This document shows, piece after piece, positions 2,506 through 19,071 of a DNA stretch of 26,088 bases. The translations under genes and the position numbers were made by a program. A model generated the notes under the pieces. That model worked only from the letters and a program-made list of their open reading frames with translations, ran no database searches and was not told the origin of the DNA. The DNA lies in the IMG/VR virus record IMGVR_UViG_3300037851_000206, positions 1-26,088 of that record, one strand, 5' to 3'. Positions within the stretch are counted from its first letter, which is position 1; each line of letters opens with the position of its first letter. The stretch comes from a virus (lineage: Duplodnaviria; Caudoviricetes).

Positions 2506-2527
2506 GCACAGCAACGGGGAAGGCATA

Positions 2528-3507
2528 GTGAGCAACAAGGCGCTCCCGCTGATTGAGCTGGCCATTGAACAGGCTGCTGAGCTGTCTACGAGAGCGTTCT
2601 GCCCGACCGGACCTGGAGGCGGGCGGGACAACTCTTGCTCTCCCAACGGCGGCAAGTCAACTCCAGACTTTGGCAGCATGACGAGTAAGGACATCGTCGC
2701 ACACTTGCAGAAGTCGCTTGCGAAGCTGACCAAGGCAAGAGCTGATCTGCAAGCGGTTCGGGATCAGGTGAGGGAGAAAATTGCAGCTCGTGTTGAGGCA
2801 GGGGAGGACTACGACGACGTCACTGACGAGATGATAGAGGAGGAGATGGAGGCGACGATGCCCCTCTATGATGTAATAGAGGAAGCGAATGAGTCCATCA
2901 TGAAGGTGCTAACGCTTCCAGATCACAGGCAGTCTGGGATCCGTATTGCGCCGGGGTCTAATCTCAGCACTGATCAGAAAGAATTCGTCACTCAGTACGC
3001 CAAGCATGTAGACAAACTGTTGGATCGTGACGTACTCGCCTCAGCCAACACGGGACGTCCTAACATGGTTCCGGTTCGCATGGAGAAGGGTGTACGGGCC
3101 AATCACGACGGACGGGGCATCGTTCTCGGTAAGCTCAACTCCGATGATTTTTTCATGAGCTGGGTCATCATCTTGAGCTATCTGAGGGAGCACAGGACGC
3201 CGCTACTTCGTTTTTGAATGATCGCGCCAACTTCGGACAGCTTGAGCCTATCCCAGGTCACAAGGGCGAAATGGCATACATCGCTCGTCAAGGAGCGAAA
3301 GAGCTGCCGTCGTATGCCAGGAAATACTACTCGGGAGGGGAGACGGAGATCGTTTCCATGGGAGTTGAGCAGCTCATGAACGACCCGCATCACTTTCTGA
3401 CGAAGGACCCGGAATGGTTTGGGTTCACGGTCGGTATTATGAGGGGCGAGCACCTGAGCGGTGCTGAGAGGGAACGTGCAAGTCGTGCTCTGGATGGAGG
3501 AATCTGA
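2528..3507 (+). CDS. Tagged cargo protein: leader + Cys/Gly tag + zincin-like metallopeptidase, split by a -1 frameshift at about 3148-3154
   Basis: GTG start at 2528 and tag at 2597-2644. Frame 0 ends at 3217. The -1 frame reads HELGHHLE from 3154 and is continuous with ORF 3214-3507 (YARKYY...TEIVSMGVE...DPEWFGF). Confidence 0.75.
3148..3154 (+). promoter_or_regulatory. Candidate -1 slippery heptamer T_TTT_TTC (alternatively a homopolymer indel)
   Basis: An X_XXY_YYZ heptamer in the correct phase. A -1 shift gives DDFF-HELGHH. Confidence 0.45.
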
Positions 3508-3508
3508 C

Positions 3509-3754
3509 ATGCTGACGGTTCGCATACACGATCTTGACTACCACTGCGACGAGCAGGAGAAGTGGCACGGTCCGCGCAAGAACGTCTTATGGGCTCTGCA
3601 ATGGGCTCTTGACGATGCAAGGCGTCACGTATCTGCTGGCAGCGATGCGTACCCGGAACGAACGCAACTAGAAGCCGCTCGGAGTAGGTACCCGTCGCTG
3701 GAACTGATCACAATGGCTCCACCGCCCCGCCATGTACCAGGAGTGGTATACTGA
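3509..3754 (+). CDS. Small hypothetical protein downstream of the peptidase cargo (candidate partner/immunity protein)
   Basis: GGAGG RBS at 3496-3500 and ATG immediately after the upstream stop. The function is inferred from position only. Confidence 0.6.
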   Translation: MLTVRIHDLDYHCDEQEKWHGPRKNVLWALQWALDDARRHVSAGSDAYPERTQLEAARSRYPSLELITMAPPPRHVPGVVY

Positions 3755-4092
3755 TGAGGATCACAACGGACTCCATCGATCGGTTCTTGCAGTGCCTAGA
3801 CGATGCCCGTCACATCTGGTGTGATACGGTGAGGCTCAACATCGGCGAACGCCCGCTGGACGCTCAGAAGGATTGCGTCCGCTTCGAGATCGTGGTGCAA
3901 GCGTCCGCCATTGTGCGAGTCAGTGACGAGGAGAGCTACTTGCTTGAGGGCGGGGAGATCTGCGGCGTCGACTACCGCGACGCGACCCAGGAGACTACAG
4001 GCAGCGTCAAGGCGGCTGAGCTAGAGGAGCGAGTGCGGACTGCGGCTGCGGCAAGGGGTTGGAAGGTGCTGCCGGGTCTTATCGAGCTCTGA
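3754..4092 (+). CDS. Hypothetical protein
   Basis: TGATG coupling to the upstream gene; 112 aa. Confidence 0.65.
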   Translation: MRITTDSIDRFLQCLDDARHIWCDTVRLNIGERPLDAQKDCVRFEIVVQASAIVRVSDEESYLLEGGEICGVDYRDATQETTGSVKAAELEERVRTAAAARGWKVLPGLIEL

Positions 4093-4157
4093 TTCGGGTC
4101 AGCCGTATTCTGTAGACTCGTGCTACAATCTCGCAACCCGTATTCAGGAGACACTAC

Positions 4158-4496
4158 ATGGCCGTTCTAAGCTCGCACAATCCAGGCGTTCTGCACCACT
4201 TGCCCATCTCGACCGCTGCGAGCGGGGACACGACGATTCTCGCCGCTGTCACGGGCAAGCGCCTTCTGCTGTTGTCCTATGCCCTGGTGGCAAGTGGAGC
4301 GGTGGCCGTCAAGTTCAAGAGTGGCTCGACTGACTTGTCTGGAGCGATGGCACTGGCTGCCAATGGGTCGCTGACGGGCAGTCTCAACAAGTACGGCCAT
4401 GTCGCCACCGCTGCTGGACAGGCGCTGATCCTGAATCTCGGGACTGGTGTGCAAGTGAGTGGTCACGCTACAGTTCTTGAAGTGACAGAGGTCTAA
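4158..4496 (+). CDS. Hypothetical protein, possibly a small beta-rich virion protein
   Basis: AGGAG RBS; Ala/Gly/Ser/Thr-rich, 112 aa. Confidence 0.65.
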   Translation: MAVLSSHNPGVLHHLPISTAASGDTTILAAVTGKRLLLLSYALVASGAVAVKFKSGSTDLSGAMALAANGSLTGSLNKYGHVATAAGQALILNLGTGVQVSGHATVLEVTEV

Positions 4497-4534
4497 GTTC
4501 ACGGGCTGGCGATTATTCCAGGTCGCCTTGATTC

Positions 4535-4906
4535 ATGTCCATCCTTGACAATTTCCCTCACCGATGCCGTATCGAGCGTGTGTCACGTCAGCCTGACAGC
4601 ATGGGTGGGAATCGGGATGTGCCCATTGTGGTGGCCGAGGACGTGCCTTGCTGGTTGCAACAGGCAGGGGCTACGGAGCTGAAGCTCTTCGAGCAGCGGG
4701 GCATGACGCTGTCGTACAAGATCTTCTTCTTGACCGATCCCGGGGTCACTGCTCAGCACCAGATTGTCCTGACGTGGTACCAGGATCAAGAAGCCGAGTT
4801 CAACCCGGGCACCGTACTGTCCGCGACCAAGCCTGACGCCACTGCTGGTTTGGGTAAACTGTGGAAGGTGATGGTTGGCGAGCAGACACCGGAGTTCGTA
4901 GGATGA
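4535..4906 (+). CDS. Putative head-closure/head-tail joining protein (SPP1 gp16-like)
   Basis: The pattern HRCRIERVSRQPDSMGG...VAEDVPCWLQ...YKIFF and the size (123 aa) fit this family. Confidence 0.65.
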   Translation: MSILDNFPHRCRIERVSRQPDSMGGNRDVPIVVAEDVPCWLQQAGATELKLFEQRGMTLSYKIFFLTDPGVTAQHQIVLTWYQDQEAEFNPGTVLSATKPDATAGLGKLWKVMVGEQTPEFVG

Positions 4907-5322
4907 CCAAGAACCTTGAATCGCAGCTCCAGACCGCAATCGATCTGGCTTCCCAGCTCTCGAAAGGTTTCTGTGCGACCGGACAGGGCGGGGGTATCGA
5001 CAACTCATGCGGGCGTGAAGGTGGCGGGGATGCGAAAGTAGGCGCCGCCAAGGACAAGTACGTTGCAGGCGAGCCCCCGGCGGAAGGTATGCTCGCACCC
5101 AAGCCCCCTACCGTCAAGCTCCCAAAGTCAAAGGCACGGCTCAACATTGACGAGTCGAATGCGGCGTTGAAGCAGATGGGCTACACCGTCAAGAGCAAGA
5201 CAGCGCCGGACAGCTCAGGAAAGTGGAGCACGACCCATACACTGACTGATGCCAAGGACGCATCCGTAGCGATGTCTTCCAAGGGGCTCAAGAGTTTCAT
5301 CTACGCCAACCAGAAGAAGTAA
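4903..5322 (+). CDS. Tagged cargo protein: leader + tag + small basic domain of unknown function
   Basis: ATGA overlap at 4903; MTKNLESQLQTAIDLASQLSK-GFCATGQGGGIDNSC. Confidence 0.8.
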   Translation: MTKNLESQLQTAIDLASQLSKGFCATGQGGGIDNSCGREGGGDAKVGAAKDKYVAGEPPAEGMLAPKPPTVKLPKSKARLNIDESNAALKQMGYTVKSKTAPDSSGKWSTTHTLTDAKDASVAMSSKGLKSFIYANQKK

Positions 5323-5362
5323 GCTGGAGGCAGAGGGACGGTCTAAGAAGAACAGGAAGAAC

Positions 5363-5776
5363 ATGCGACCTTTCAAACGGCTTGTGGAGTGGATTGAGCA
5401 ACGTAGGTATCGGAGATCACTTGTCGGACGTCTGACGGACCTTCAACGCAAGCTCGTTCGCCTTGAATACGAACGACTTCGTGTGGAGGCAGAGGTTCAG
5501 CTACAGAAGACGGAGACTGAAGAGCAGCGCGTGCGGTACGATCGTGCCATGCAACGCCTTCAGGACTCTCTTGAGAAGAGTGAGTTGTTTGTCAAGAGAC
5601 AAAAGGAGGCGATCGACGCGCTAAATGATCAGCTCCAGACAGCAACGGAGCTGACCATTCCAACGCTCGTCGCCGCACATCAATTGGTCCTGAATCGGTT
5701 CGAGCACGAGTCGCAGATACTGGCAATGCGAAACGGTGCTATGGTGGCAGCAAGCCAGGGTAACAACGAAGGGTGA
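5363..5776 (+). CDS. Coiled-coil hypothetical protein
   Basis: AGGAAG RBS; heptad-rich L/E/Q/R sequence. Confidence 0.7.
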   Translation: MRPFKRLVEWIEQRRYRRSLVGRLTDLQRKLVRLEYERLRVEAEVQLQKTETEEQRVRYDRAMQRLQDSLEKSELFVKRQKEAIDALNDQLQTATELTIPTLVAAHQLVLNRFEHESQILAMRNGAMVAASQGNNEG

Positions 5777-5785
5777 TGACAAACC

Positions 5786-6286
5786 ATGAGACGCAAGCAA
5801 ACGATCAAGCTGATAGACACTGCGATTGAGCAAGCCGAACGTCTGTCAAAGGTGTTCTGTCCTACTGGACAGGGTGGCGGGGTGGATCCGACGTGCTCGC
5901 CTGGTGGTGGGCGGTCTGGTGATGGCGGGGGCAGTGGTGGGGATGTTTTTGCTCATGAGCGTGGCGGTAGAGAAGAATTGTACGATGGTCCAAACGTCAC
6001 TCCGACTCTATCCACATATCTGGCAGAGGGTCACGGAGCCTTCTCTATGGAGGATGTAGCAGAAGCTCAAGGGAGTGCCCAGAGCTGGTTGGATCGGGCG
6101 ATAGAGGAAATGCCGCCCCGAACTGATTCTGAGATTGATCAGTTCGAATCTGATATGTCTGCAACTGTTGACAACTGGGTGGAGAACGAGGGATACAACG
6201 AGGATGTGACGGAAGACGCCAAAGACATCTTTTACGAGGTTTTATCCGGAAATCTTCAACGACTTCGACAAGACAAAAAACGCTGA
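5786..6286 (+). CDS. Tagged cargo protein: leader + tag + acidic helical domain of unknown function
   Basis: KQTIKLIDTAIEQAERLSK-VFCPTGQGGGVDPTCSP followed by a D/E-rich region. Confidence 0.8.
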   Translation: MRRKQTIKLIDTAIEQAERLSKVFCPTGQGGGVDPTCSPGGGRSGDGGGSGGDVFAHERGGREELYDGPNVTPTLSTYLAEGHGAFSMEDVAEAQGSAQSWLDRAIEEMPPRTDSEIDQFESDMSATVDNWVENEGYNEDVTEDAKDIFYEVLSGNLQRLRQDKKR

Positions 6287-6303
6287 TCGTATGTCCATCC
6301 CGT

Positions 6304-6366
6304 AAGCTGCCAAAGAAAACTGAGTGGGGTGTCCTTGTGAGCAGACGTGTCGTAGAACTGATCGAC
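6304..6366 (+). repeat. Imperfect direct repeat of about 63 bp; second copy at 8547-8610
   Basis: aagctgccaaagaaaactgagtggggtgtccttgtgagcagacgtgtcgtagaactgatcgac versus aagccgccaaagaaaaactgagtgaggtgtccttgtgagcagacgtgttgtagagctgattgat. Confidence 0.9.
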
Positions 6367-6417
6367 GACAGCCCACCAAGCAAGCCCGGACGTCAGCCGC
6401 CACGCAAGAGAAACTGA
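6337..6417 (+). pseudogene. Remnant cargo gene, 26 aa (MSRRVVELIDDSPPSKPGRQPPRKRN)
   Basis: The first 10 aa are identical to the 8581 leader, and the end resembles the KKPPKKN tail of 8118-8567. Tag and cargo are missing. Confidence 0.65.
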
Positions 6418-6428
6418 AGGAGGCACCC

Positions 6429-8114
6429 GTGCCGTCAGCGATCACAAAGGCTCTGTCACGCGGACAGGCCATCTACGACGTAGCCCATCACACCGGTCTC
6501 TCTATGAAGAAACCGGACATCTCCCGCATCCTGATGCCGTTCGATGCCGCGTCGCCTTTCACCCAGCTCGCCGACCAGGCCGCCAACACCCGCCGTTATC
6601 AACTCTACCGCGGTTGGGTGTACGCCGCAGTGAATGCCCTTGCGGCCGAGGCAGCGGGGCAGCCTGTGACGCTCGGACGTGTGTCCAGCAAGTCCAAGAA
6701 GGGCAAGCCGAGAAGCGAGAAGGGGTACGTCAAGGTCCCTTCGTTCTACAGGACGAAGCAAGCAGACGACGAAGTCGAGATCATCTACGAGCACCCGCTA
6801 CTAGATGCACTGGAGCCGCCCAACCCTATTCAAGGCCTCTGGCAGTACGTCTACTCCTACGTCGCCAACCTATGCCTCACTGGCTGGTCGTTCATTGTGA
6901 TCGATGACCAGGGCAAGGACGGTCGCGACTACTACTCAATCCCAACCACATGGATACGCCCGGACCACAGCGAAGGAGCGTTCTCCAAGTTCCGCATCAT
7001 CAATCCGCAGAACCCAGCATCGGAGCTGAACGGGGAACCGTTGGACAGGTCGCAGGTCATGTTCGCGACGCTGCCAAACCCAGCTGACCCGATGGGTGCT
7101 CTATCCCCTTCCACAGCAACCTCGCAAGCGATTTCCATTGACGACCAAATCCAGACGTCGCAGGCGGCCTTTTTCGAGAACGGAATCTTTCCGTCAGTGA
7201 TCGTCACAATGGGTTCTAACCCGCACCCCGACGTACCAGCAGGCATTCGCCCACGACTGACATCGGAGCAGCGGCGGCAAGTGTACGGGGCCATCAAGAA
7301 GGTGAGCAGCGGTGTAGCGAACTACGGCAATCCAGCCATCATTGACGGCATGATCGAGAAGATTGAGCGTCTGTCCGCTTCGCAGAATGAGATGGGCTGG
7401 GAGAAGAGCGAGAAGGCAGTCCGCACTCGCATCCTGTCAGCATACGGAGTCCATCCGTTCATCCTTGGTGAGGAGATGCCGGGTTCGTATGCCCAGGCCA
7501 ACATTGTTGAGGGTCGCTTCTACAAGAAGGTAAACACCTACTTGAAGATGCTGAGCGACTTGCACACCGCCCACGCAAGGCAGCATGACGACGATTCCAT
7601 TCTGATGTGGTGGGAGCCGTGTAAGGCAGTGGATCCGGGCATGGAGCGGAGTGCATGGGAGTCGGCCAGGAACAGAGGGGACGTCCGCCAGAACGAGTAT
7701 CGAGCCGAGGTGATGGGACTGCCACCAGATCCAGATGAGACAGAAGAGCTCATTGACAAAGGCATGACGAAGGACGTGCTCGCTGTCGCTCAGGGCGTCC
7801 GTGCGGGCACGATTGAGAAGGAACAGGGTGTCGCCATTCTGGTCGGAATTGGGATGCCGGAGAAGATGGCACGAAAGATCGCAGGGGAGGCAGCACCGCC
7901 ACCGCCGGCCCCGCCAGCCGTTGCGCCGGGCATACCAGGCGCGCCCGTTGCGGGTGCCGTTGCTCCTCAGGCAGCAACGAACGAGCCTACAGGCGACGAT
8001 ATGCAACAGGCAGTCAAGACGCTTGATCGACTGATCGGAATCTGCGAACTGGATCCAGATGACGAGGTTGATCGTATTATGAGGAAGTCCTCAGTACATG
8101 CACAGGAGAAGTGA
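6429..8114 (+). CDS. Phage portal protein (HK97 family)
   Basis: AGGAGG RBS then GTG at 6429. Motifs WVYAAVNALA, HPLLDALEPPNP, FFENGIFPSVIV, ILSAYGVHPFILG and NEYRAEVMGLPP, with a Pro/Ala-rich tail. Confidence 0.9.
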   Translation: MPSAITKALSRGQAIYDVAHHTGLSMKKPDISRILMPFDAASPFTQLADQAANTRRYQLYRGWVYAAVNALAAEAAGQPVTLGRVSSKSKKGKPRSEKGYVKVPSFYRTKQADDEVEIIYEHPLLDALEPPNPIQGLWQYVYSYVANLCLTGWSFIVIDDQGKDGRDYYSIPTTWIRPDHSEGAFSKFRIINPQNPASELNGEPLDRSQVMFATLPNPADPMGALSPSTATSQAISIDDQIQTSQAAFFENGIFPSVIVTMGSNPHPDVPAGIRPRLTSEQRRQVYGAIKKVSSGVANYGNPAIIDGMIEKIERLSASQNEMGWEKSEKAVRTRILSAYGVHPFILGEEMPGSYAQANIVEGRFYKKVNTYLKMLSDLHTAHARQHDDDSILMWWEPCKAVDPGMERSAWESARNRGDVRQNEYRAEVMGLPPDPDETEELIDKGMTKDVLAVAQGVRAGTIEKEQGVAILVGIGMPEKMARKIAGEAAPPPPAPPAVAPGIPGAPVAGAVAPQAATNEPTGDDMQQAVKTLDRLIGICELDPDDEVDRIMRKSSVHAQEK

Positions 8115-8117
8115 GCG

Positions 8118-8567
8118 ATGAGCAAGCAAACCATCAAGCTGATTGACACCGCCATTGAGCAAGCCCATCGCCTGTCGAAGGTGTTCTGTCCTACTGGCCA
8201 AGGCGGCGGTCGGGATCCAACGTGCTCGCCAGGCGGCGGGAGGGGTGACGGTGGCGGCAATCCTATGGTGACTTCGACGGGCGACGAGATAAAGGTTGGT
8301 CATACTTACTTGGACACTGAAACAGGTGACGAGTTTACAGTGGAAGAGTTTCATGTTCTTGTTCGTTATGAGCCTGTCACAACTCCGTTTCCAGAAAAGG
8401 TAGAGAAGCCTATTGTCATAGGTACCATACCGGGATGGAAAGGTCAAAGGTGGAGGTACCCGCACAAACTAGGTCCGCTTGTGAGTAAGCCAGCCAAGCC
8501 GCCGAAGGCACCCAAGCCAGCCAAACCATCAAAGCCAGCCAAGAAGAAGCCGCCAAAGAAAAACTGA
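8118..8567 (+). CDS. Tagged cargo protein: leader + tag + small beta domain + Lys/Pro-rich tail
   Basis: Leader and tag are nearly identical to those of the 5786 gene. It ends KPAKPPKAPKPAKPSKPAKKKPPKKN. Confidence 0.8.
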   Translation: MSKQTIKLIDTAIEQAHRLSKVFCPTGQGGGRDPTCSPGGGRGDGGGNPMVTSTGDEIKVGHTYLDTETGDEFTVEEFHVLVRYEPVTTPFPEKVEKPIVIGTIPGWKGQRWRYPHKLGPLVSKPAKPPKAPKPAKPSKPAKKKPPKKN

Positions 8568-8580
8568 GTGAGGTGTCCTT

Positions 8581-9420
8581 GTGAGCAGACGTGTTGTAGA
8601 GCTGATTGATACTGCCATTGAGCAAGCCCTTGGGCTGGCCAAGGCTTTCTGCCCGACGGGTCCAGGTGGCGGCGTGGACAATTCATGCTCACCGAAGGGC
8701 GGAGGTAAGGGTGGCGACGATGCGTTTGCCAGTTCCAGGTTGTTCACTGAAGACGAGATCAAGGGCGGGGACACCTCCCAGCCCGCCGAGACCAAAGAGG
8801 ACATCTACAAACTCGCACGCGCAGCCCGCCCTGACTTCGTTGCGATCTTGGACACCGGAGAGGGCGTTGACAAGACCATCGGAGCGAACGCTGCTCACGT
8901 TGATACTGCCGAAGGATTCGCCGAGGCGATTCAGACCAAGGGGCACACTGTCATCATCGGAGGACTCAAGTCAGAGAAGCGAGCGACGGAGAAAGTTGAG
9001 GGCAAGTACGAGGGCGACTGGTCCAGACTCAAGGACGTCGTACGAGCGACCGTCGCTGTGGATTCCAAGGAAGACATTCCGAAAGCGGTGGGGGCTATTC
9101 GCAGTCACATGGAAGCGAAGGGGTACGAGCTGGTGGAAGTGGACAACCGCATGGAACATCCCAACGCGGCGGGCTATCGCGACATCAACACCGTATGGCG
9201 GTCGCCTGACGGCTTCTGCACGGAGCTTCAGATCAACACCAAGGCCATGATTCGTGCCAAAGAGATCGGCGAAGGCCATAAAATGTTTGAGCGGGCAAGG
9301 CACATCGCAGAGACGCCTGGTCGCGAGAAGCGACAGGCGACAACTGAGGAACGTGCAGAGCTCGACGATCTCAATGCACGAATGAGAGTTCTCTACGGAA
9401 AGGCATGGGACGAAGGATGA
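8581..9420 (+). CDS. Tagged cargo protein: RelA/SpoT-like nucleotidyltransferase (small alarmone synthetase-like)
   Basis: LKSEKRATEK, LKDVVRAT, GYRDIN, ELQINT and GHKMFE match the order of RelA/SpoT synthetase motifs. Confidence 0.85.
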   Translation: MSRRVVELIDTAIEQALGLAKAFCPTGPGGGVDNSCSPKGGGKGGDDAFASSRLFTEDEIKGGDTSQPAETKEDIYKLARAARPDFVAILDTGEGVDKTIGANAAHVDTAEGFAEAIQTKGHTVIIGGLKSEKRATEKVEGKYEGDWSRLKDVVRATVAVDSKEDIPKAVGAIRSHMEAKGYELVEVDNRMEHPNAAGYRDINTVWRSPDGFCTELQINTKAMIRAKEIGEGHKMFERARHIAETPGREKRQATTEERAELDDLNARMRVLYGKAWDEG

Positions 9421-9617
9421 AGTATGTCTGGCATGACGGTGTGATCGTTCGGCAAGCGGACCCGTTCGCCCAGGCCGAGATCTACGGACCGAAGGCGAAG
9501 AAGTGGTTCCCGTTCCCGGAGTCGAAGGACAGCCGCCATTCCGCGTTCGCTGCCATGCACGAAGGGACGCCGCTGACTGAGAAGCAGGTCAAGGATAAAA
9601 TCGCGGAGCTTTCTTGA
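9417..9617 (+). CDS. Small hypothetical protein coupled to the RelA/SpoT-like gene (candidate antitoxin)
   Basis: ATGA overlap upstream and TGATG overlap downstream; 66 aa. Confidence 0.65.
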   Translation: MKYVWHDGVIVRQADPFAQAEIYGPKAKKWFPFPESKDSRHSAFAAMHEGTPLTEKQVKDKIAELS

Positions 9618-12600
9618 TGTCTTCGCTCACCACCAGAGCTTTCTGCCCGACGGGCCCGGGCGGGGGCGTAGACAACTCCTGTCCTCCCAAGCATGGAGGC
9701 GGGAATGCAGACGCGGCGCAGGCTGCAAAGGACGAGGCCAAGCGCAAGGTCCGCGAGCTCACGAAGGATCTGACTCGTGAGGAGATGCTGAACGCGGTTG
9801 CGAAGGCAGAGAACACACCGGAGAAGCTCTTTGACCTGTCGCAGCCCGGAACCAAGTTCGTCAACATTGGCGAGCTCAATCCGATCCGAGCACGGGAGAA
9901 GGGCATCGACACTGCCACCCGCATCATGTACGCGGGTGGCACCGACCAGTCGCCCATGCCTCCTCGCGTTCCCATCAGCGTCAAGAAGACTGGGCCGACG
10001 TACGAGATCCAAGACGGGAATAGCACCTACGCCGTACTGAAGGCGGCTGGGTGGGAGCGGGTTCCGGTCGTGGACGTGGACCTGCAAACGAAGTCAGCAA
10101 TGTTGACCCTCGTAAAAGCCGGGCAGACACTTGCCAAGATGCGAATCCGTCACACCGCACGTCGCAAGGTGCGGGAGGTCAGCGGGAAGGTTCATCTGCG
10201 CCAGTACGACGCAACGGTAGTGAAGCTCGAGGGCGTGTTGCACCCGTTCTTCCTTGCACAGGCCAAGGATGTCAGCGATCGCCTGTTGCGACTGGAGCGG
10301 GGCTCCGATGTGATTGGTGAGAAGGCATGGTGTCCAACGGGACCTGGCGGGGGCAAGGACAATTCATGTTCGCCCAACGGGGGCAAGTCCATCCCTTCGG
10401 TGACGCTTCCAGACGAGGTGGATAAGAACCTCGAGTCGTTTGGTTTGTCGGGTCCATTGGGCGGAATCTGGAAGCAAGTTCTGGAGAGCAATGGAGTCGA
10501 CCCAGCCGCTATTCAGGAGATGGAGCAGCTTTTCGACAGCCACCGTCATGGTGACGGGATCCAGGAGAGGGCAGATAAAGAGATTGCCGATGCTCTGCAC
10601 ACAGACACGCCACTTGGCAACGCGCTTCGCACTCAGGTGGCAGTGGAAACGGCGGTCCTTGCCAAGTACGAGAAGCTCCGACCCGTACTTGCTGATAGGC
10701 AAGATGCTCGATCCAAGGCTGACATGAAGGAGGCTTGGGAGCATGGGTACGCGCCAAAGAACGACGATGCCTATGGGTCGTGGGAAGAGCAGTGGGAGGT
10801 AGAAGAGAAACACGAGACGAGGGAGTTGCGGGAGCCCATGCGGTTCTACCGTAAGGGCAGCCTCGACAAGGATGTAGTGGCAACGTCTACCAATTCTTCT
10901 GGAGCAAGAAGCCATGCCGTCATTGGCGACCCATCTAGTCAGCCACACTTCAAGCCAACAGGTTCTTGGACAAGTGCAGAACTGAAGGCTGAAGGATACA
11001 TGGTTCTTGGAGGAGTCGGTTTCAAAGGAATGGGCTACTCCGGAGAGAACGAGGTGACGTGGATTCGCGTTCGCGAAAGTAGCGTCACGAACACTAAGTC
11101 CGCATCTCGCACGAAGGCACAGCAGACCCACAGCAACACGGATGCTGAGGCACTGGCCCACTCCGTCTACGACCCGCGTGAGTGGGATGCGTTGCTGGTC
11201 GAGACGCTGATGGTGCCGTATGCAGAGGCGTACCTGGAGGCCGCTTCTGCTGAGGTGGAGCTTGCGAAGATGGCAGCGGACATCAAGCAGGTCAGTATCG
11301 CGGGCTCCAAGATGGTGCAAGCGTACGAGCAGTGGAAGGCCTTCAACCCTAATCAGCCACGCGACGAGGCCGGACGTTTCGCATCCACTGGCTCAGGAGG
11401 GATGGGTAGGGTAGAGCGGGGTGCGGACACACCGGACAAGAAGGCACTGGTGGATCAGCTCGCTGTGATGCGGGACATGATCGAGAAGAACTTCAAGCAA
11501 GAGGGGTGGAAACACGGGTCGATCCAAGGCATGGTGATAGAGGAGGGGCAGTGGGACAACCCACAGCCGCTACCCAAAGGCGTCCGCCGTGGCACCATGA
11601 AGCAATGTTTCCAGAACGCCTACCAGCTCGCAACGCGAGACTCTGAGTACACCTACGTCGAAGGCTATGCCATGACGAAGGGTATTCCGCTGGCCATCGA
11701 ACATGCTTGGGTCGTTGACAAGGCTGGCAACGTGGTTGACAACACTTGGGACACGCCAGGCACAGCGTACCTTGGCATCCACTTCGACACGTCGTTCGTG
11801 GAGCAGCAAGCCGCCAAGACGGGTGTGTATGGGGTGCTGGGCGGCTACCACATGGAAGCCACGCGGGAGCTACTGGAGAACGGGCTGCCAAGTGGAGCGA
11901 GGACCAAGTCGGCGGGCATGTTCATCCGCACCAAGGCGTCCACCGCTGCAAGGTGGATCGGTGCGAAAGTGCTCAAGTACGATGAGATGACAGTTCGAAC
12001 GAGTGCTGGTGAGTTCAGTTTCAAGATCTCAACCGAGTATCCGAAGTGGATGAAGCGTCGTCTCAAGGAACTGCTCGAAGAGACGTTCTCGCAAGACTAC
12101 TGGCAGGACATCAACGACACGACCTCATCCGACATCACTTCTGTTCTGCAACGGGGCCTCAAGGATGGGTGGTCCATCACGGACATCGCACAAGAGATCG
12201 TTGACAGCCTTCCTGGCGGGCAGGGGGACACGTTGTCGCGAGCCACTGCAATCGCTCGGACGGAGGCAGGGCACGCGCTCAACGGTGCAAGGTCCGCTGC
12301 GATAGACGACCTTGCTGAGGAGATGCTGCCGTACGGACTCCCGATCAAGAAGACGTGGATGTCCGTACTCGGAACAACCACGCGGGAGACTCATGCAGAC
12401 GCTGACGGGGTGCCAGCCGACCAGCGTGGCATGTGGTCCATCGGCGGGTACGATTGCCGCTGGCCTGGGGACGTGATGCTGCCCGCCCATGAGCGGATCA
12501 ATTGTTTCCCTGGATCGGTTTTAGTCTCTGGTGATTTCACAGGGGCGCAGATGGGCAGGTACGATGGCATTGTCGCCAAAATCATACTCAGCACGGGGGT

Positions 12601-14596
12601 GGTTCTTACCGTCACTCCACATCACCCAATAATGACCTCTAAGGGATGGGTTAGTGCAGGCTGTCTCCAGAAGGGTGATAAGGTGGCGTGCTATCGGACC
12701 GATTCTAATCTCGCTCTTGGGAAGGCCGCCGGGGTACCTACGAGTGGGATCTGGAAATACGGCGGCGAAGATGTAGATTACAAACCAGTCTCGATCGAGC
12801 AGGTATCGAAGGCGATCTTTTCCGCGGGTGCTACCTCTGGGGTGATTGAAATCCTGCGAGCTGAGATGAACGATTTCTATGGCGATGGAGTGTTCTTTGA
12901 TGCAGAGGTCCAAGTTGTAAGGGCCGACTGGAAACTGCTGATCGACCGCATAATCGAGGGACCGAAGAAAATCGGTGACTTTGTTTTCACTCTGGTAGAT
13001 CCCCAGTCTTCTGGTGTACCTTGTTTGAGCTCGTCGTACATTAGACTCGACAGAGTTCCCGTTGCTGCGCCGGGTCTCCCAAGCCTTGCCAAGCCATTTC
13101 TCTGTATCCCCATCAGCAGCATCTCTCCATCTGGATCGCTGGCCCTCGGAATAGCCCCGGATAGACACACCGCGTTCCTTGAGATAGGAGGTGATGCGAT
13201 TTCGGGTTATCCCGTATCTCTTCGACAGTCGTTGCAGAGGGATACCGTTGGTGTACTCGGAGAGGAGAGTATCGGCTATTTCAGGAGGGATCTCCAGTCG
13301 TCTAGAGCTGTTCCATCCACATCGTTTGATCACAATGCCGCGGCTCTCGATTCTGCTTTTGATGGTGGCGGGATCGCAGTGGTAGACTCTGGAAATGGAG
13401 AGCATCGATTCCCCTCTGAGGTATCGTTTGCAGATGTCGTCAGTGTCGAGGAGTTTCCGTTTCATGGTGTGGTATACGATCTCCAAGGTGTGAATGGATT
13501 GATTGTAGCGAGGGACCCCGAATCAGCAAGCATTGGCATAGGTGTGATTGCTTCGAATTGCCAGTGTACCATTCTATCTGAGTACGGGATGACAGATTCC
13601 GAGGCAGGAGAGCTGCTCAGCGATTACAGAGCCCGAGTCGAAGAACGCGAGCAGTTCTACCGATCGCAAGGCAAGTCGTACACAGACGACAAGAGCTGCG
13701 GTGCTGGGTCCGCCGGTAGTCCAGGATTCGGAACCGGGAACACCTGCGCCGTTGGTCGCGGTGGGCAGTCTCTGTTAGCTACCAAGAAGCGACGGGACGG
13801 AACGCGAGTCCTTGCAAACGGCAAGCCCCTCCCCGACCACGTCCCAGTCATTCCGCCAGCGTGGGAGGATGTGCATGTCAGCCTTGACAAGAACTCCGAT
13901 CTGGTTGTGAAGGGCAGGGACGCGAAGGGTCGCATCCAGTCCATCTATTCGGAGAAGCATTCGACGCGACAGGCCAAGCTCAAGTTCGCCAAGGTCAAGG
14001 AGCTACGAGCCAAGCAGAAGGCCATCCGCAAAGAAATCGAGAGCGACCTCAAGTCGGACGATCCAGAGGTTCGCGAGTCCGCTGCTGTGGCACGTTTGAT
14101 CCAGGAGACGGGCATCCGCCCGGGCGGGAGCAACGACGGCAAGGCAGCCGTCCAGTCATATGGGGCGACGACGCTTGAGGCACGTCACATCAGCGTCCGC
14201 GATGGAAAGGTCACGCTCAAGTTCGTGGGCAAGAAGGGCGTCAAGCTCTCCATCCCCGTAGAAGACAAAGCCGTTGCCAAGGACCTAATACGACGTAAGG
14301 CCGAGGCCGGTGGACCGCGTCGCCCCATCTTCGACACGACGGACGAAAGGCTTCGGGAGTACGCGGACACGTTGGACGGCGGCAAGTTCAACCCGAAGGA
14401 CTTCCGCACGGCGAAGGGTACGGAGATCGCTGTTGCCATGATCAAGTCCATGCCCGCACCAAAGACGGAGCGTGAGTACAAGGCGTCAGCCAAGGCAGTG
14501 GCCAGAGCGGTTTCCGACCGCCTTGGAAACACCCCGACCGTCGCCCTTCAGTCGTATATTGATCCTGTGGTGTTCTCGAAGTGGAGGATCAAGTGA
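9617..14596 (+). CDS. MuF/SPP1 gp7-family minor head polyprotein with intein. Cargo modules: ParB-like, ART-like, papain-like and C-terminal DNA topoisomerase IB
   Basis: MuF motifs RATAIARTE, KKTWMS..TRETH and PGD..LPAHERIN/CQC. TopIB motifs IPPAW, GRDAKGR.Q..Y, GIRPG, FVGKKG, KDFRT and LGNTPTVALQSYIDP. Confidence 0.9.
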   Translation: MSSLTTRAFCPTGPGGGVDNSCPPKHGGGNADAAQAAKDEAKRKVRELTKDLTREEMLNAVAKAENTPEKLFDLSQPGTKFVNIGELNPIRAREKGIDTATRIMYAGGTDQSPMPPRVPISVKKTGPTYEIQDGNSTYAVLKAAGWERVPVVDVDLQTKSAMLTLVKAGQTLAKMRIRHTARRKVREVSGKVHLRQYDATVVKLEGVLHPFFLAQAKDVSDRLLRLERGSDVIGEKAWCPTGPGGGKDNSCSPNGGKSIPSVTLPDEVDKNLESFGLSGPLGGIWKQVLESNGVDPAAIQEMEQLFDSHRHGDGIQERADKEIADALHTDTPLGNALRTQVAVETAVLAKYEKLRPVLADRQDARSKADMKEAWEHGYAPKNDDAYGSWEEQWEVEEKHETRELREPMRFYRKGSLDKDVVATSTNSSGARSHAVIGDPSSQPHFKPTGSWTSAELKAEGYMVLGGVGFKGMGYSGENEVTWIRVRESSVTNTKSASRTKAQQTHSNTDAEALAHSVYDPREWDALLVETLMVPYAEAYLEAASAEVELAKMAADIKQVSIAGSKMVQAYEQWKAFNPNQPRDEAGRFASTGSGGMGRVERGADTPDKKALVDQLAVMRDMIEKNFKQEGWKHGSIQGMVIEEGQWDNPQPLPKGVRRGTMKQCFQNAYQLATRDSEYTYVEGYAMTKGIPLAIEHAWVVDKAGNVVDNTWDTPGTAYLGIHFDTSFVEQQAAKTGVYGVLGGYHMEATRELLENGLPSGARTKSAGMFIRTKASTAARWIGAKVLKYDEMTVRTSAGEFSFKISTEYPKWMKRRLKELLEETFSQDYWQDINDTTSSDITSVLQRGLKDGWSITDIAQEIVDSLPGGQGDTLSRATAIARTEAGHALNGARSAAIDDLAEEMLPYGLPIKKTWMSVLGTTTRETHADADGVPADQRGMWSIGGYDCRWPGDVMLPAHERINCFPGSVLVSGDFTGAQMGRYDGIVAKIILSTGVVLTVTPHHPIMTSKGWVSAGCLQKGDKVACYRTDSNLALGKAAGVPTSGIWKYGGEDVDYKPVSIEQVSKAIFSAGATSGVIEILRAEMNDFYGDGVFFDAEVQVVRADWKLLIDRIIEGPKKIGDFVFTLVDPQSSGVPCLSSSYIRLDRVPVAAPGLPSLAKPFLCIPISSISPSGSLALGIAPDRHTAFLEIGGDAISGYPVSLRQSLQRDTVGVLGEESIGYFRRDLQSSRAVPSTSFDHNAAALDSAFDGGGIAVVDSGNGEHRFPSEVSFADVVSVEEFPFHGVVYDLQGVNGLIVARDPESASIGIGVIASNCQCTILSEYGMTDSEAGELLSDYRARVEEREQFYRSQGKSYTDDKSCGAGSAGSPGFGTGNTCAVGRGGQSLLATKKRRDGTRVLANGKPLPDHVPVIPPAWEDVHVSLDKNSDLVVKGRDAKGRIQSIYSEKHSTRQAKLKFAKVKELRAKQKAIRKEIESDLKSDDPEVRESAAVARLIQETGIRPGGSNDGKAAVQSYGATTLEARHISVRDGKVTLKFVGKKGVKLSIPVEDKAVAKDLIRRKAEAGGPRRPIFDTTDERLREYADTLDGGKFNPKDFRTAKGTEIAVAMIKSMPAPKTEREYKASAKAVARAVSDRLGNTPTVALQSYIDPVVFSKWRIK
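12503..13558 (+). mobile_element. Intein (352 aa) inserted in the MuF ERIN|CQC motif
   Basis: N-terminal CFPGSVLV, block B LTVTPHHPIMTSKGWV, block F FHGVVYDLQ and terminal ASN followed by Cys(+1). Removal restores the MuF ERINCxC motif. Confidence 0.92.
12521..13465 (-). CDS. Putative homing endonuclease: tandem HTH repeats + Vsr/DUF559-like PD-(D/E)xK nuclease, antisense within the intein
   Basis: Two HTH-like repeats (YLRGESMLSISRVYHCDPATIKSRI; YTNGIPLQRLSKRYGITRNRITSYL), then SENKVTDFL...QQFPVGPYNLDLCIKEHSIAIEI...KDRLRYLLDRDWFVIYI. Start at 13465 (ATG) or 13486 (TTG). Confidence 0.8.
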   Translation of the reverse strand: MKRKLLDTDDICKRYLRGESMLSISRVYHCDPATIKSRIESRGIVIKRCGWNSSRRLEIPPEIADTLLSEYTNGIPLQRLSKRYGITRNRITSYLKERGVSIRGYSEGQRSRWRDAADGDTEKWLGKAWETRRSNGNSVESNVRRAQTRYTRRLGIYQSENKVTDFLRSLDYAVDQQFPVGPYNLDLCIKEHSIAIEIVHLSSQDFNHPRGSTRGKDRLRYLLDRDWFVIYIFAAVFPDPTRRYPGGLPKSEIRIGPIARHLITLLETACTNPSLRGHYWVMWSDGKNHPRAEYDFGDNAIVPAHLRPCEITRD

Positions 14597-16176
14597 GTCG
14601 CATTGAAGGCCTTGACGCTGATGTTCACTTTGGCAGTGTGGACGACGAGGACGCTGACTGGCGTTCTGAACTCGTTGATGTGGATCCAGATGACGAGGAG
14701 CTTGCACAGACTCCCGACGACGTGATCGCCATTCTTGGGTTCGACCCACTCGAGGAGTACGGCCCGCGGGCGACAAAGGCGTTCTGTGCGACAGGCGTTG
14801 GTGGGGGTGTGGACAACTCATGCAGTCCAAAGCAAGACGCGGGAGGTGACAAGGACCTTCGCGGAGCGAACTTGCGTGGCAAGGACTTGCGGGGTGTTGA
14901 CCTGGAGTCAGCAGACCTACGCGAGGCGGACTTGAGGGATGCGGATCTACGGGATGCGAATGCGAAGAACGCTGATATGAAGAACGTGGATGCACGGTCA
15001 GCTGACATGACTCGTGCGGACCTTCGCAAAGCGAACTTGGAATCGGCAACTCTCCGCAATGCCTACCTTGATGTGGCGGACCTCAGCGGAGCGAACCTAT
15101 CGGAGGCTGACATGCGGTCTGTGTCTGCCAAGAGTGCCTCGTTCAAGAACGCGGACCTACGGGGTGCTGTGTTGACGGAGGCCAATCTGAGTGGCGCGGA
15201 CCTGCGCAACGCTGATCTACGGGAGGCGAATCTAAGAAGTACCCACATGACGGGTGCTCGTCTTCGCGGAGCGAAACTGGACGGGGCTCTTCTTCAAGGT
15301 GCAGATTTTGGCGGTGCTGATCTCGATCAACGCGAGGTAGAAGCCGCTGCAAGCGGCCATGCCCTCGTGGATGGGAAGGCGTGGTGCCCTACTGGTCCGG
15401 GAGGTGGACGGGACAACTCGTGTTCTCCCAAGCGGGACTCCTCGCAACCTAGTTCTGGGATGCTCGCGAGGGCAAGCGCCGTTTTTCAGGAGCTTGACGG
15501 CGACGGGGAGTTGGGTAATGCGTGTGATGCGCAGATGAGGGGCGGAAAGTTCAACAAACGAGGTACCTTTGAGCCGTTCTCCGAGAAGACGAAGCTCTTG
15601 AACCTCCGCAAGATTCGAAGAGGGCTTGCTGATCTGAAGGACAAGGATTCAGAGGCGTTTGAGCTCGCTAGGCAACTGGGCATCGCGGACAGGTTTGGAG
15701 TAGAGGAGTACGCAGATCTTCCTGACAAAGTGACCGTCTACCGAGGTCATAGTGAACACGAGGAAGCATCCACAGTCAACAACGTCACCACCCGCAAAGA
15801 AGTGGCCGAGAAGTTTGGGGAGACGGGGGTCGTCACCGAGTACGAGATGAGCAAGGACGACATCATCTTCCCTCTGTCTAACAGTGTCTTTGATGAGGGC
15901 GAGATGATCGTCCATACCAAGAGCATGAAGGTCGTGAGTCAAAGACTGTCCGATGCGGTTGTTGAGAACCGTGCCTATCTTGACTTCGTCAAGGACCTCA
16001 GTCATCACGGAAGCAAGGTGGTAGGCATGTTCGAGGGAGCAAAGTCCGTCGGCAAGGTGAAGCATCTTGGAGTCTCCAACACATTGGTCGTTGAGTGGGA
16101 TGTACCTGGACAAGGAACTGTCACTGACTACCTGACGGCATGGCGGGACGTGCAAATTGTGAAAGGCGAGTCATGA
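14593..16176 (+). CDS. Two-tag polyprotein: acidic N-terminus + pentapeptide repeat domain + ADP-ribosyltransferase-like domain
   Basis: GTGA overlap; tags at 14782 and 15382. A(D/N)LxxA repeats at about 14850-15330. VTVYRG..VTT..VAEKF..DEGEMIV at about 15727-15912. Confidence 0.85.
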   Translation: MSRIEGLDADVHFGSVDDEDADWRSELVDVDPDDEELAQTPDDVIAILGFDPLEEYGPRATKAFCATGVGGGVDNSCSPKQDAGGDKDLRGANLRGKDLRGVDLESADLREADLRDADLRDANAKNADMKNVDARSADMTRADLRKANLESATLRNAYLDVADLSGANLSEADMRSVSAKSASFKNADLRGAVLTEANLSGADLRNADLREANLRSTHMTGARLRGAKLDGALLQGADFGGADLDQREVEAAASGHALVDGKAWCPTGPGGGRDNSCSPKRDSSQPSSGMLARASAVFQELDGDGELGNACDAQMRGGKFNKRGTFEPFSEKTKLLNLRKIRRGLADLKDKDSEAFELARQLGIADRFGVEEYADLPDKVTVYRGHSEHEEASTVNNVTTRKEVAEKFGETGVVTEYEMSKDDIIFPLSNSVFDEGEMIVHTKSMKVVSQRLSDAVVENRAYLDFVKDLSHHGSKVVGMFEGAKSVGKVKHLGVSNTLVVEWDVPGQGTVTDYLTAWRDVQIVKGES

Positions 16177-17489
16177 ACATCAGTCAACACGAACCGCCGC
16201 CGGACATCTCCCTCGCTGGATATTCAGTCGTAGCCAGCTACATCGAGGCAGCCAACAGAATCCTCGTTCAGGACCCTTCTGTATCCGAAGTCGAGCTAGA
16301 CAGAAGGGCACGCGCCGTAGCCGCACAGCCGACTAGGAAGAAGAAGGGGGCGTCCGATCGTCTCAAAGCATTCTGCCCCACGGGTCCAGCCACCGATAAC
16401 GACGGCTCATTCGATCCGAAGAACCCAGACATCACGAAGGCATTTTGTCCAACCGGCCCAGGTGGGGGTGTAGACAACTCATGCAGTCCAAAGCGTGGCA
16501 GCAACAATCGGAGACGGGATAGGCATCAACACGTTGACACCAACGGTGACGGGGTGACGGACGCCGCTCGTGTAGGTGTGCCTGCGATGGAGGTGCCCCC
16601 GCCGCCAGGCGTTCCGAAGTTGGACGGACTTGACGAACGTAGTGAGCAGGCTCAGCAGGCATTCATAGACCACTTCGAAGCTGATCCGGATGGGGTGGCA
16701 AGCAAGTTTCGTGAGCTGGTTGTCAAGGCAGGGGGAACTCCTACGTTCGGAACGGACGACGCAAAGGTTCTGGCAGACGTATGGTCCGAGACGGACCCTG
16801 AGCAACGTGCGACCAACCGTGCCACAATGAATCTGGCTCTCCATCAAACCGCTAACGCAATCGCCAAGCGAGCATTCTTGCAGTACCTGGACACGTTGGA
16901 GCCCGGTGCCAATATCCTGGTCACTGCGGGTGGCTGCGGGGCTGGGAAGGGGTTTGCTCTTGGCACTGACAAGGATGGGAACCCCTACGTTCCCAAGGCC
17001 CATGAAATGAAGACCCAAGCCTCCGCCGTGTGGGACTCGGCAGGTGACCAGAACGGTATCGAGAGCCCATGGATTCTTGAGGAGGCTGAAAAGCGAGGGC
17101 TGACAGTTTCGTACGCCTACATTCATGCCGACCCGAAGGTACAATGGGCTGACCCGAACAAGGGCGTGGTCAAACGTGCCAGCAACCCGAAGGACGGGCG
17201 GATGGTAGACGCAAGAGTGTTCGCTGACAGCTATGTGGTCGGAGCTCAGAACCACATGGCGTTCTACGAGGCCAACAAGGACAACCCAGCCGCGTCGTTC
17301 GTCTTCATTGACAACCGCAACGGTCCCAAGGAGGTCCCTACCATTCCGGAGGAGGCACTGAGTCTGTCTGCTGATGAGCTGGTAGAGTTTGCAGAGCAGG
17401 CAGTGGCAAGCCCTGACGTTCCACCCCGCGTTCGCGAAGGTGCTACTCAAGGGCGTCGTGTGTGGGAGGCAGCAGATGACGACGATTGA
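16173..17489 (+). CDS. Tagged cargo protein: zeta-toxin-like P-loop kinase
   Basis: ATGA overlap. Walker A ILVTAGGCGAGKG at about 16929, plus VWDSAG, YAYIHADP, RASNPKDGRMV and FVFIDN. Confidence 0.75.
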   Translation: MNISQHEPPPDISLAGYSVVASYIEAANRILVQDPSVSEVELDRRARAVAAQPTRKKKGASDRLKAFCPTGPATDNDGSFDPKNPDITKAFCPTGPGGGVDNSCSPKRGSNNRRRDRHQHVDTNGDGVTDAARVGVPAMEVPPPPGVPKLDGLDERSEQAQQAFIDHFEADPDGVASKFRELVVKAGGTPTFGTDDAKVLADVWSETDPEQRATNRATMNLALHQTANAIAKRAFLQYLDTLEPGANILVTAGGCGAGKGFALGTDKDGNPYVPKAHEMKTQASAVWDSAGDQNGIESPWILEEAEKRGLTVSYAYIHADPKVQWADPNKGVVKRASNPKDGRMVDARVFADSYVVGAQNHMAFYEANKDNPAASFVFIDNRNGPKEVPTIPEEALSLSADELVEFAEQAVASPDVPPRVREGATQGRRVWEAADDDD

Positions 17490-19071
17490 GCAGTGGTGGG
17501 AAGAGGACGCAGAGAGGTTGAACAAGCTCGCGGAGGCTGCTCGTCCATTCGCTGCAAAGGTGCTGCCAGATGACGACAAGCCAACAGACGCCAAGGCCTG
17601 GTGTCCAACAGGCCCAGGTGGCGGGCGGGACAACTCCTGCTCGCCCAAGCGCAACGCCGTTGGTGACGTGTCTGTTCCTACGGAAGATGAGGCACGGGCG
17701 AACTACGAAGCCCTCTACGAACGCGCAAGAAAGCAAGAGGCCCAGAGAGAGGTTGTAGCCTCCCAGTGGTCTTCAATGAGGTTCGAGTTGGAGAAGGACA
17801 GACTCGAGCTCGAGAAGTTGCGGAACGTCTACCCGCGGACCCCAGAACTCGAAGAACGAATAAACGCCGCTGCGGAGGCACTAGACGACAAGGAGTTGAC
17901 GTATGCACAGCTCTCCCGTCAGGTTCAAACAATGGATCGGGAAGAGCAGTTGGTTCTACACGAGATGACTCGCGAGAAGATGCAGCTCCAAGCCGCCAAC
18001 CCGGAGGAGTACCGTGCGGCTATGCTGGAGGACCTGGAAGGGATGAAAGCGACTCACGGCAAGCTCGCGGAGCTTGAGAAGCTGGCAGACGAATCTGGAT
18101 ACGTTGGTCTTTACAATAGTCAGATTGGCAAGATGGCTGAAGTCGTCAGATCCTTTGCCACTCTCGAAGATGCTTTGGAGACTCATCCTGCTCTTCAAAG
18201 CCACCCGGAACTTGCGAAAGCGATGTTCGAGTACAAAGGCCCAGCGAACATGCGGCCAGACAACTCAAAATGGCTGCCACCATACTACGGGGACCCTCAC
18301 ACAGTCGGGGACACTCGTGCTGAGATGTCGTCAAGCAAAGTGTCCAAGCTGGTAGCAGGCAGAGTCAAGGAGCAGGGCGGGGCGAGTGAGGACGTCAAAT
18401 CCTTCACTGAGCAATGTGGGATCTATGCTCAGATGAGTTCCGGTGGAGTGGCCCAGATACTGATGAGCGAAGACGGTCGTGTCAAGAACGGATTCTTCAG
18501 GGATACGCCTGGTTCCGTAGGAGATGGCAGGCCGACGTACTGGCCCATTCGTAAAGGCGCAGAGAAGCGGATGTTCGACATCCCGCTTTCAGCAAGACCC
18601 GATCAGCGTCCAGTGTATGGGTACCTTGAACATCCACACCGTTCGCGTAGTGTTTCCCAGAAACACAAGCAATATGGCGACGTTCAGGTCGTTTTCAAGC
18701 CTGCTGTGAAGGCTCGCACCACGATGACTGTAGGAGACTCGCTGGATGACGAAGGTCTTCATGGAGCAAAGGCAGTGGCAGTCAACGACCCAGGGGGAAG
18801 CATTCTCTCTGACGGGTACACAGTGTCAGCCGCTCCTGTTGCATCTGATTGGAAGGTTGGGTATGCAAGCGATCCGGAAGCAGAAGGATGGACGCCACGA
18901 TACATCGAGGCTCAGATGCACGGCAAAGTGAGCAGAGGCGACATCCAAGAGATTAGAGCTGCGAAAGGTACATTGTCTTCATACGCCCGCGAAGCGGCGG
19001 CAAAACACGGCATCCCGATAGTTGACCTGCCGCCTCCGCACATTCTCTACTCGTATGCTCGAGGTTGGTGA
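17476..19071 (+). CDS. Tagged cargo protein: coiled coil + DUF3626-like (ART-like) domain
   Basis: GGGAGG RBS and ATG at 17476. Motifs RPVYGYL, QYGDVQVVFKP..KARTTMTVGDSL and YIEAQMHGKV..DI. Confidence 0.75.
   Translation: MTTIEQWWEEDAERLNKLAEAARPFAAKVLPDDDKPTDAKAWCPTGPGGGRDNSCSPKRNAVGDVSVPTEDEARANYEALYERARKQEAQREVVASQWSSMRFELEKDRLELEKLRNVYPRTPELEERINAAAEALDDKELTYAQLSRQVQTMDREEQLVLHEMTREKMQLQAANPEEYRAAMLEDLEGMKATHGKLAELEKLADESGYVGLYNSQIGKMAEVVRSFATLEDALETHPALQSHPELAKAMFEYKGPANMRPDNSKWLPPYYGDPHTVGDTRAEMSSSKVSKLVAGRVKEQGGASEDVKSFTEQCGIYAQMSSGGVAQILMSEDGRVKNGFFRDTPGSVGDGRPTYWPIRKGAEKRMFDIPLSARPDQRPVYGYLEHPHRSRSVSQKHKQYGDVQVVFKPAVKARTTMTVGDSLDDEGLHGAKAVAVNDPGGSILSDGYTVSAAPVASDWKVGYASDPEAEGWTPRYIEAQMHGKVSRGDIQEIRAAKGTLSSYAREAAAKHGIPIVDLPPPHILYSYARGW

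Follow-up and report, generated by a model that had tools for sequence, protein, structure and literature searches.

Short N-terminal segments that bring cargo into an assembling phage head are known from phage T4, where the capsid targeting sequence (CTS) is described, in the accessible part of the source, as a stretch of 10-19 amino acids (aa) which targets a protein to the capsid and is removed (PMC9026906). Here we describe a 26-kb virus record bearing an HK97-type head module (IMGVR_UViG_3300037851_000206; 26,088 nucleotides, all of which is referred to as the window), in which five stand-alone cargo genes begin with a leader of 21-22 aa, predicted to form an amphipathic helix and followed immediately by a conserved short sequence, the tag. 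The likeness to the CTS carried by IPI, IPII and IPIII of T4, and to the pro-peptide of Alt, which are removed by gp21, lies in a short N-terminal pro-peptide common to divergent cargo with a prohead-protease site, here putative, at its end (PMC9026906, PMC7411985, as far as the accessible parts of both go). The leaders, however, are longer than the T4 range, end in K/R whereas gp21 cuts at L/I-x-E, belong to a head of HK97 type (S78 protease, PF04586; capsid, PF05065, with a capsid-fused scaffold; portal, PF04860), and precede a second conserved element that would be left on the cargo; its function here is, moreover, a predicted one. As the idea of a loading pro-peptide is already known from T4, the element is of limited surprise.

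The MuF polymorphic toxins and polyvalent proteins, including SPP1 gp7 and MuF-RelA/SpoT, offer another comparison. In the available portions of the papers on them, they have in common with the present genes the neighbourhood beside the portal, the cargo types (RelA/SpoT, metallopeptidase), small downstream open reading frames (ORFs) and a predicted delivery via the head (PMC5576092, PMC5512222, PMC3482391). In the window, the gene with the RelA/SpoT domain, at 8581, lies between portal and MuF. The five genes, however, are without a match to PF04233, whereas the gene at 9617 matches it at E=1.3e-5, below the curated cut-off; a shared leader, a tag and processing by the prohead protease are not described in those portions, where polyvalent proteins are proposed to be cut by their own metallopeptidase. 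Terminal removable segments have likewise been proposed to target gp245 and gp47 of SPN3US into the prohead (PMC7411985, accessible part). The C-terminal helix of the prohead protease in the clade studied here resembles the leader profile, in line with the targeting pro-peptides of prohead proteases. HK97 gp4 is said to carry a C-terminal targeting signal. Those segments are 64-111 aa long or C-terminal and belong to single proteins, whereas the leader is a portable module on swappable cargo. Neither leader nor tag (including the string CPTGPGGG) was found described in the titles, abstract openings and consulted portions of the papers that full-text searches brought up; subscription papers and supplements lay outside that search, and the supplementary alignments of polyvalent-protein and MuF papers could hold the motifs. 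To our knowledge, the uptake of minor proteins by HK97-type heads beyond portal, protease and MuF has been little studied.

All five leaders lie where the first-pass annotation had placed them, each forming the N-terminus of its ORF directly ahead of [AGV]FC[PA]TG, with K or R as its last residue. The consensus proposed for them, LI(D/E)xAIEQAxxL(S/A)K, fits three of the five in full; the copy at 2528, however, ends in STR, and the copy at 4903 (QLQTAIDLASQL) is divergent and is missed by a strict motif scan. The observation that tagged genes from 9617 onwards are without the leader was borne out. The five leaders have a common hydrophobic face, share 5 to 17 residues in pairwise comparison over 18 core codons, and show a modest hydrophobic moment when compared with shuffled sequences (p 0.03-0.18). 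A profile trained on the leaders themselves scores the five copies at 31-52 and the next site in the window at 17; being circular, it informs only on the absence of a sixth full copy in the window. AlphaFold2, applied to the 8581 protein with a 28-sequence alignment, predicted a helix at residues 3-20 (predicted local distance difference test score, pLDDT, about 72/63), a disordered tag at 19-43 (pLDDT <50) and a confidently folded cargo. The latter has the fold of an alarmone synthetase, with Tas1 as best match (E=1.4e-8), and the cargo of the 4903 gene recurs elsewhere, there preceded by an N-terminus of acidic type. Neither leader nor tag could be assigned to a Pfam or PHROG family, and the Atlas comparison gave no usable match.

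The leader peptide is under purifying selection: its residues are retained although synonymous differences are close to saturation. Between the leaders at 5786 and 8118, differences are seen at 6 of 13 synonymous sites (proportion of differing sites, pS, 0.46) and at 2 of 41 non-synonymous sites (pN 0.05; Fisher p=0.0014). Over all leader pairs pS is 0.62 and pN 0.34, the corresponding values for the tag being 0.72 and 0.17. Copying of the 5' end accounts for the origin of the paralogues, but not for this constraint.

Helices of this kind also stand before tags in other phages, predominantly on stand-alone genes. In G016, a complete relative of 93 kb with seven tags, a leader of its own is present before an FNPxHD tag on five of five stand-alone tagged genes, which are spread across the head and tail modules, and on neither of the two tags inside MuF; four of these leaders are nearly identical in protein sequence. 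No untagged leader was seen in this genome (top five scores 63-79, next 30). In G015, three stand-alone genes have a leader before a GSGN tag. In a set of 12 records, such a helix opens 18 tagged genes that stand alone, distributed over 8 of the records, whereas of 35 tags lying within portal, MuF or protease one is preceded by it; these classes were assigned by eye, with five rows dropped as false pattern matches and one ORF cut at a locus edge counted as MuF. Matches were obtained in 10 of the 29 related records searched. A scan of metagenomes for a start codon, K and tag returned seven stretches, one of them with a clear helical leader. P0217, recovered via its cargo alone, is a non-circular homologue in which the leader keeps its exact register and is followed by another tag (p=0.002).

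The statistical signal outside the window was assessed by a local profile test against shuffles on 83 tagged N-termini, a set which included two leaders chosen by eye. Three of the 83 reached p<=0.01 (binomial p=0.051), and p<=0.05 was reached by 6/33 short K/R-type proteins as against 1/50 others (Fisher p=0.014). This test replaced one using the whole 16-column profile, which penalised short leaders (best p 0.02 among 81). Of 153 RelA/SpoT homologues, five were significant at p<=0.01, P0217 being the only one of them with the K-tag layout. A relaxed leader-plus-tag pattern had three matches in the viral collection, all spurious or unrelated.

At least four tags other than CPTG follow homologous or similar helices in relatives. 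The two elements had originally been described as a bipartite signal; since such helices precede other tags, they are rather independent modules, and leader, tag and cargo form three such modules. Natural swaps of tag and cargo behind the leader are consistent with a leader that, like the T4 CTS, would suffice to package a fused foreign protein, and the targeting role suggested in the first-pass annotation is supported by the distribution between stand-alone cargo genes and tags inside head proteins. Long homologues of the 8581 cargo, of which 35 were scanned, include eight fused to portal and two to MuF, and because of these fusions the cargo can be considered head-type. It is likely that the five proteins are packaged in the head.

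The residue before the tag provides a plausible clue to processing. In proteins with two or more tags it is uniform in 103 of 110 cases (null mean 36.5, maximum 48 in 2000 shuffles), and whether it is N, K, R or L depends on the phage. Of 20 capsids from the clade, 17 have a K directly at the scaffold-capsid junction, and the remaining three have it one residue earlier; the HK97 capsid is cut at K103/S104 (PMC10275583, in its accessible part). R-type tags occur on S78 proteases as well, and one N-type tagged protein showed a weak match to DUF2213. Because the pre-tag residue is uniform and is the same as at the capsid scaffold junction, K/R before the tag is likely cut by the prohead protease. 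The removability of the leader, as earlier proposed, is consistent with both observations.

Taken as a whole, these data make a capsid-loading pro-peptide like the T4 CTS the best explanation of the leader, and one that we hold to be probable. The observed basis is a predicted helix that is under protein-level selection, precedes a residue specific to the phage, combines independently with tag and cargo and is limited to cargo genes that stand alone. By means of the helix, the cargo would attach to the helical scaffold within the HK97-type prohead during assembly; the prohead protease would then cut at K/R, removing the leader, so that the protein would begin with the tag. No leader would be required where the cargo is fused to MuF, portal or protease, and cargo behind a partner domain might, on weaker grounds, be towed in by the cargo upstream. 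That the helix and not the tag does the loading is favoured to a similar degree as the explanation itself.

Which head component the helix would meet was approached through its resemblance to helices of the head proteins. With the profile of the five leaders, the best of eight head regions were the N-terminal helix of the portal (p=0.007) and the MuF N-terminus (0.037). With a profile of 26 leaders from 19 sources, compared with class-preserving permutations in 10 regions, these were the C-terminus of the protease (p=0.002), the C-terminus (0.006) and N-terminus (0.012) of the portal and the long coiled-coil helix of the scaffold (0.018; 30 residues, predicted at 54-84 of the scaffold region), the MuF helix (0.19) not being above permutations. 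The loose likeness between leader and portal C-terminus, noted at first reading, is thus seen with the larger profile but not with the five window leaders (p=0.27), and other helices score similarly. In the reverse test, the MuF N-helix profile (from 23 other proteins) was the best of 1555 head-protein windows, with the portal N-terminus second. A specific copy of the scaffold coiled coil was considered and rejected, as p was 0.29 with five leaders and 0.018 with 26, and co-variation was absent, so that this helix is not singled out. Similarly, the match of the 5786 leader to the portal segment at residue 304, which we take to be the clip region, at 8/13 positions (family-level p=0.025-0.047) is probably due to chance, the segment being invariant and internal. 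A fair reading of these profiles is that the leader would be a generic coiled-coil-type helix like those which end inner head proteins, no single head helix being singled out. Because the portal's own end helices look similar, a shared third partner is suggested, and our simplest guess is the scaffold, with the portal as the alternative; between capsid scaffold and portal we are about evenly divided. The scaffold of D3 has been described as coiled-coil towers (PMC12749128, accessible part).

A number of results weigh against the loading pro-peptide. The exact leader pattern had no match in the viral collection, the sequence being private to this phage, and a leader hidden Markov model (HMM), a check proposed in the first-pass annotation and run here on 39,624 six-frame segments from 192 loci, gave no match with an E-value below 15 beyond the window. 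Most leaders outside the window are individually non-significant in the local test described above, and in an anchored test on 14 N-termini, P0217 included, one was clear, one borderline and the rest non-significant. Nine stand-alone tagged genes in the 12 records begin with other N-termini, and the MuF of G015 bears a leader despite an N-terminal helix of its own. In six short homologues of the 8581 cargo (P0292, P0338, P0341, P0307, P0330 and P0347), the tag lies within 6-16 residues of the start with no helix; in other phages the tag alone may suffice, or these homologues may be fragments. Conservation is also stronger in the tag than in the leader; among the five genes, that at 2528 is frameshifted, and one leader copy has decayed. 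As for the partner, the best-scoring head helix varies with the profile used, hhalign of the leader against four head alignments gave no match, and leaders do not co-vary with the head helices of their own genome (p=0.60).

Some of these points can be accommodated by assigning loading or ejection to the tag, in which case the helix would act only as a spacer, providing the protease with its upstream side, or would mask the tag until maturation. The stronger conservation of the tag and its far wider occurrence (227 tags) fit this, as do the short tagged proteins with almost no N-terminal extension and the nine stand-alone genes with other N-terminal types. However, 34 of the 35 tags inside MuF, portal or protease lie behind the same residue with no helix, so the site does not need one; a spacer would not require a hydrophobic face kept across 18 residues, at least five unrelated tags can replace one another behind it, and among the alternative N-termini two are likely partner domains linked to the cargo upstream. 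We consider this explanation unlikely. Somewhat less improbable is that the helix binds the portal as SPP1 gp7 (MuF) does, representing a detached copy of the MuF N-terminal helix, with cargo in few copies only; this amounts to the best explanation with another partner, and the two confidences overlap. With the MuF N-helix profile, the five leaders rank in the top 0.1-1.5% among 1108 segments of the window, 7/20 outside leaders fall in the top 10% of an amphipathic background, and SPP1 gp7 is reported to bind the portal at 1-2 copies per capsid (PMC5576092, accessible part). Nevertheless, the MuF profile window was selected on the same five paralogous leaders, the MuF helix did not exceed permutations with 26 leaders, co-variation within genomes is absent, and the similar end helices of the portal suggest a third, shared partner.

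The leader could also be a by-product of gene birth, in which the 5' end of an existing gene, comprising ribosome site, start, leader and tag, would be copied and spare cassettes would recombine by way of the leader-tag DNA. The four near-identical leader proteins in G016, the 82% DNA identity of 5786 and 8118 over 136 nt, the decayed copy at 6303-6417 and the frameshifted gene 2528 are all compatible with such an origin, and stand-alone cassettes are known in polymorphic toxin systems (PMC3482391, accessible part). The near-saturation of synonymous sites with residues kept, however, argues for selection on the peptide rather than on DNA identity, and lineages with different leader sequences all retain a helix of similar length ending at K, which makes gene birth as the whole explanation improbable. 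Least probable of all is an inhibitory or folding pro-peptide that would stop the cargo from harming the cell producing it, until cut off by the protease. Although the fold of the 8581 cargo is that of growth-inhibiting alarmone synthetases, one helix would need to fit five unrelated cargoes, the model of the 8581 protein puts a disordered stretch of 25 residues between helix and cargo, and small downstream ORFs are the more usual route to immunity.

Two features of the cassettes were missed by the first-pass annotation. One is a decayed sixth copy, a 26-aa mini-ORF (6337-6417) just before the portal, which retains the first 10 codons of the leader but lacks a tag; the stretch around it, which resembles the junction of the 8118 and 8581 genes, is a scar of cassette turnover. 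The other is a shift of frame in gene 2528 within a run of six T, ahead of the HExxH motif (3140-3507). The ORF at 3214-3507 is the remainder of the metallopeptidase-like cargo, an intact version of which is found elsewhere at the C-terminus of MuF polyproteins; the gene is either broken or contains a slippage site, and both assemblies agree on the sequence. A small ORF at 9417-9617, directly after the 8581 gene and with no homologue among the fetched loci, is possibly the immunity partner of the 8581 cargo. The positions of these and the surrounding features are given in the table.

Table. Leaders, tags and neighbouring head-module features of the window
Feature	Position	Strand	Remarks
Leader 1	2528..2593	+	22 aa, ends R; tag 2594-2641; cargo HExxH metallopeptidase-like, frameshift near 3150
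Leader 2	4903..4965	+	21 aa, most divergent, ends K; tag 4966-5013; gene end 5322
Leader 3	5786..5851	+	22 aa, ends K; tag 5852-5899; acidic cargo, no known family; gene end 6286
Decayed copy of the 8118/8581 gene junction	6303..6417	+	92% over 50 nt
Portal (PF04860)	6429..8114	+	N-terminal helix ~6429-6509 ending near K, C-terminal helix 8001-8042; both loosely leader-like
Leader 4	8118..8180	+	21 aa, ends K; tag 8181-8228; gene end 8567
Leader 5	8581..8643	+	21 aa, ends K; tag 8644-8691; RelA/SpoT-type alarmone synthetase cargo; gene end 9420
MuF polyprotein with intein and topoisomerase IB domain	9617..14596	+	four K/R-tag sites, three tag types
MuF N-terminal helix of the 9617 gene	10097-10138	+	at residue 161
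N-terminal domain of leaderless tagged gene	14593..14766	+	directly downstream of topoisomerase IB domain in 5/5 loci (related, not independent)
N-terminal domain of leaderless tagged gene	17476..17583	+	directly downstream of 16173-type P-loop cargo in 10/10 loci, window included (related, not independent)
Prohead protease (PF04586, S78)	22771..23928	+	C-terminal helix 23845-23883, leader-like
HK97-fold capsid protein (PF05065)	23983..25674	+	270-aa N-terminal scaffold region; K270 (24790) at scaffold junction

Among the leaderless tagged genes downstream, one is MuF itself (9617), and two of the three others open with a likely partner domain of the cargo whose gene lies immediately upstream. 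The N-terminal domains of 14593 and 17476 also occur as small untagged ORFs and, on the evidence of this linkage, are likely partner or immunity domains; for 16173, no homologue was found for the same linkage check. Such a domain might tow the next cargo into the head, which we put forward with less confidence. Both are candidates for uncharacterised inhibitor or antitoxin families.

The window contains 11 full CPTG tags, nine behind K and two behind R, and one degenerate copy, and its MuF gene includes two additional tag types near 11336 and 13691. Across the clade at least five unrelated short tags are seen behind the same K site, of the CPTG, CGAG..GF..GNTC, CGG..PGPC, GSGNFGH, FNPxHD..GRF and HGSHDQ types; this variety is visible at those two positions and in L175, L208, L209, L222, P0217 and P0218. 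Other recurring short N-termini, strand-like or acidic, precede tags in P0164, P0175, P0126, P0161 and P0201 and are possibly further loading signals. MuF is split into two genes in some relatives (L254, 15500-18997; L175, 6841-12164), and in G016 a leader-bearing cargo gene sits between the two MuF halves. Inside the intein-like region of the window's MuF gene, the minus strand holds a 321-aa ORF (12521-13486) with a weak restriction-endonuclease-like match. A 97-aa gene with no Pfam family (19328-19621), conserved after MuF in ~20 clade loci, is a candidate head-assembly factor. The scaffold region of the capsid protein (23983-24790), at ~270 aa, is much longer than the 102-103 aa of HK97, and a small folded subdomain is predicted at capsid residues 150-245.

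The stretch itself is present in freshwater metagenome runs from two studies, one of them probably its source, and a second assembly, probably of the same sample, matched 2400-9700 with zero differences. No RNA dataset was listed among the holders of the stretch, and an annotated phage relative of the window was not found. Four tag-bearing loci in genome collections carry unrelated metagenome-assembled genome (MAG) labels.

For the clade as a whole, we tentatively suggest that swappable effectors are loaded by three interchangeable routes, namely as fusions with MuF, portal or protease; through a portable helix of 20 residues, which would co-assemble with the scaffold coiled coil as the end helices of portal and protease would; and by towing behind a partner domain that would bind the upstream cargo, with one protease code exposing exchangeable N-terminal tags. 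Because HK97 and D3 proheads have already been made in E. coli from cloned genes (PMC12749128, accessible part), packaging of a leader fused to green fluorescent protein (GFP) can be assayed. If the proposed role is true, the helix would constitute a transplantable capsid-loading tag for HK97-fold particles, like the T4 CTS, and such cargo genes could be recognised in sequence data by their leader. The MuF domain is considered necessary for MuF-type effectors. If a short leader does take the place of MuF, this would explain stand-alone cargo genes scattered in head and tail modules.

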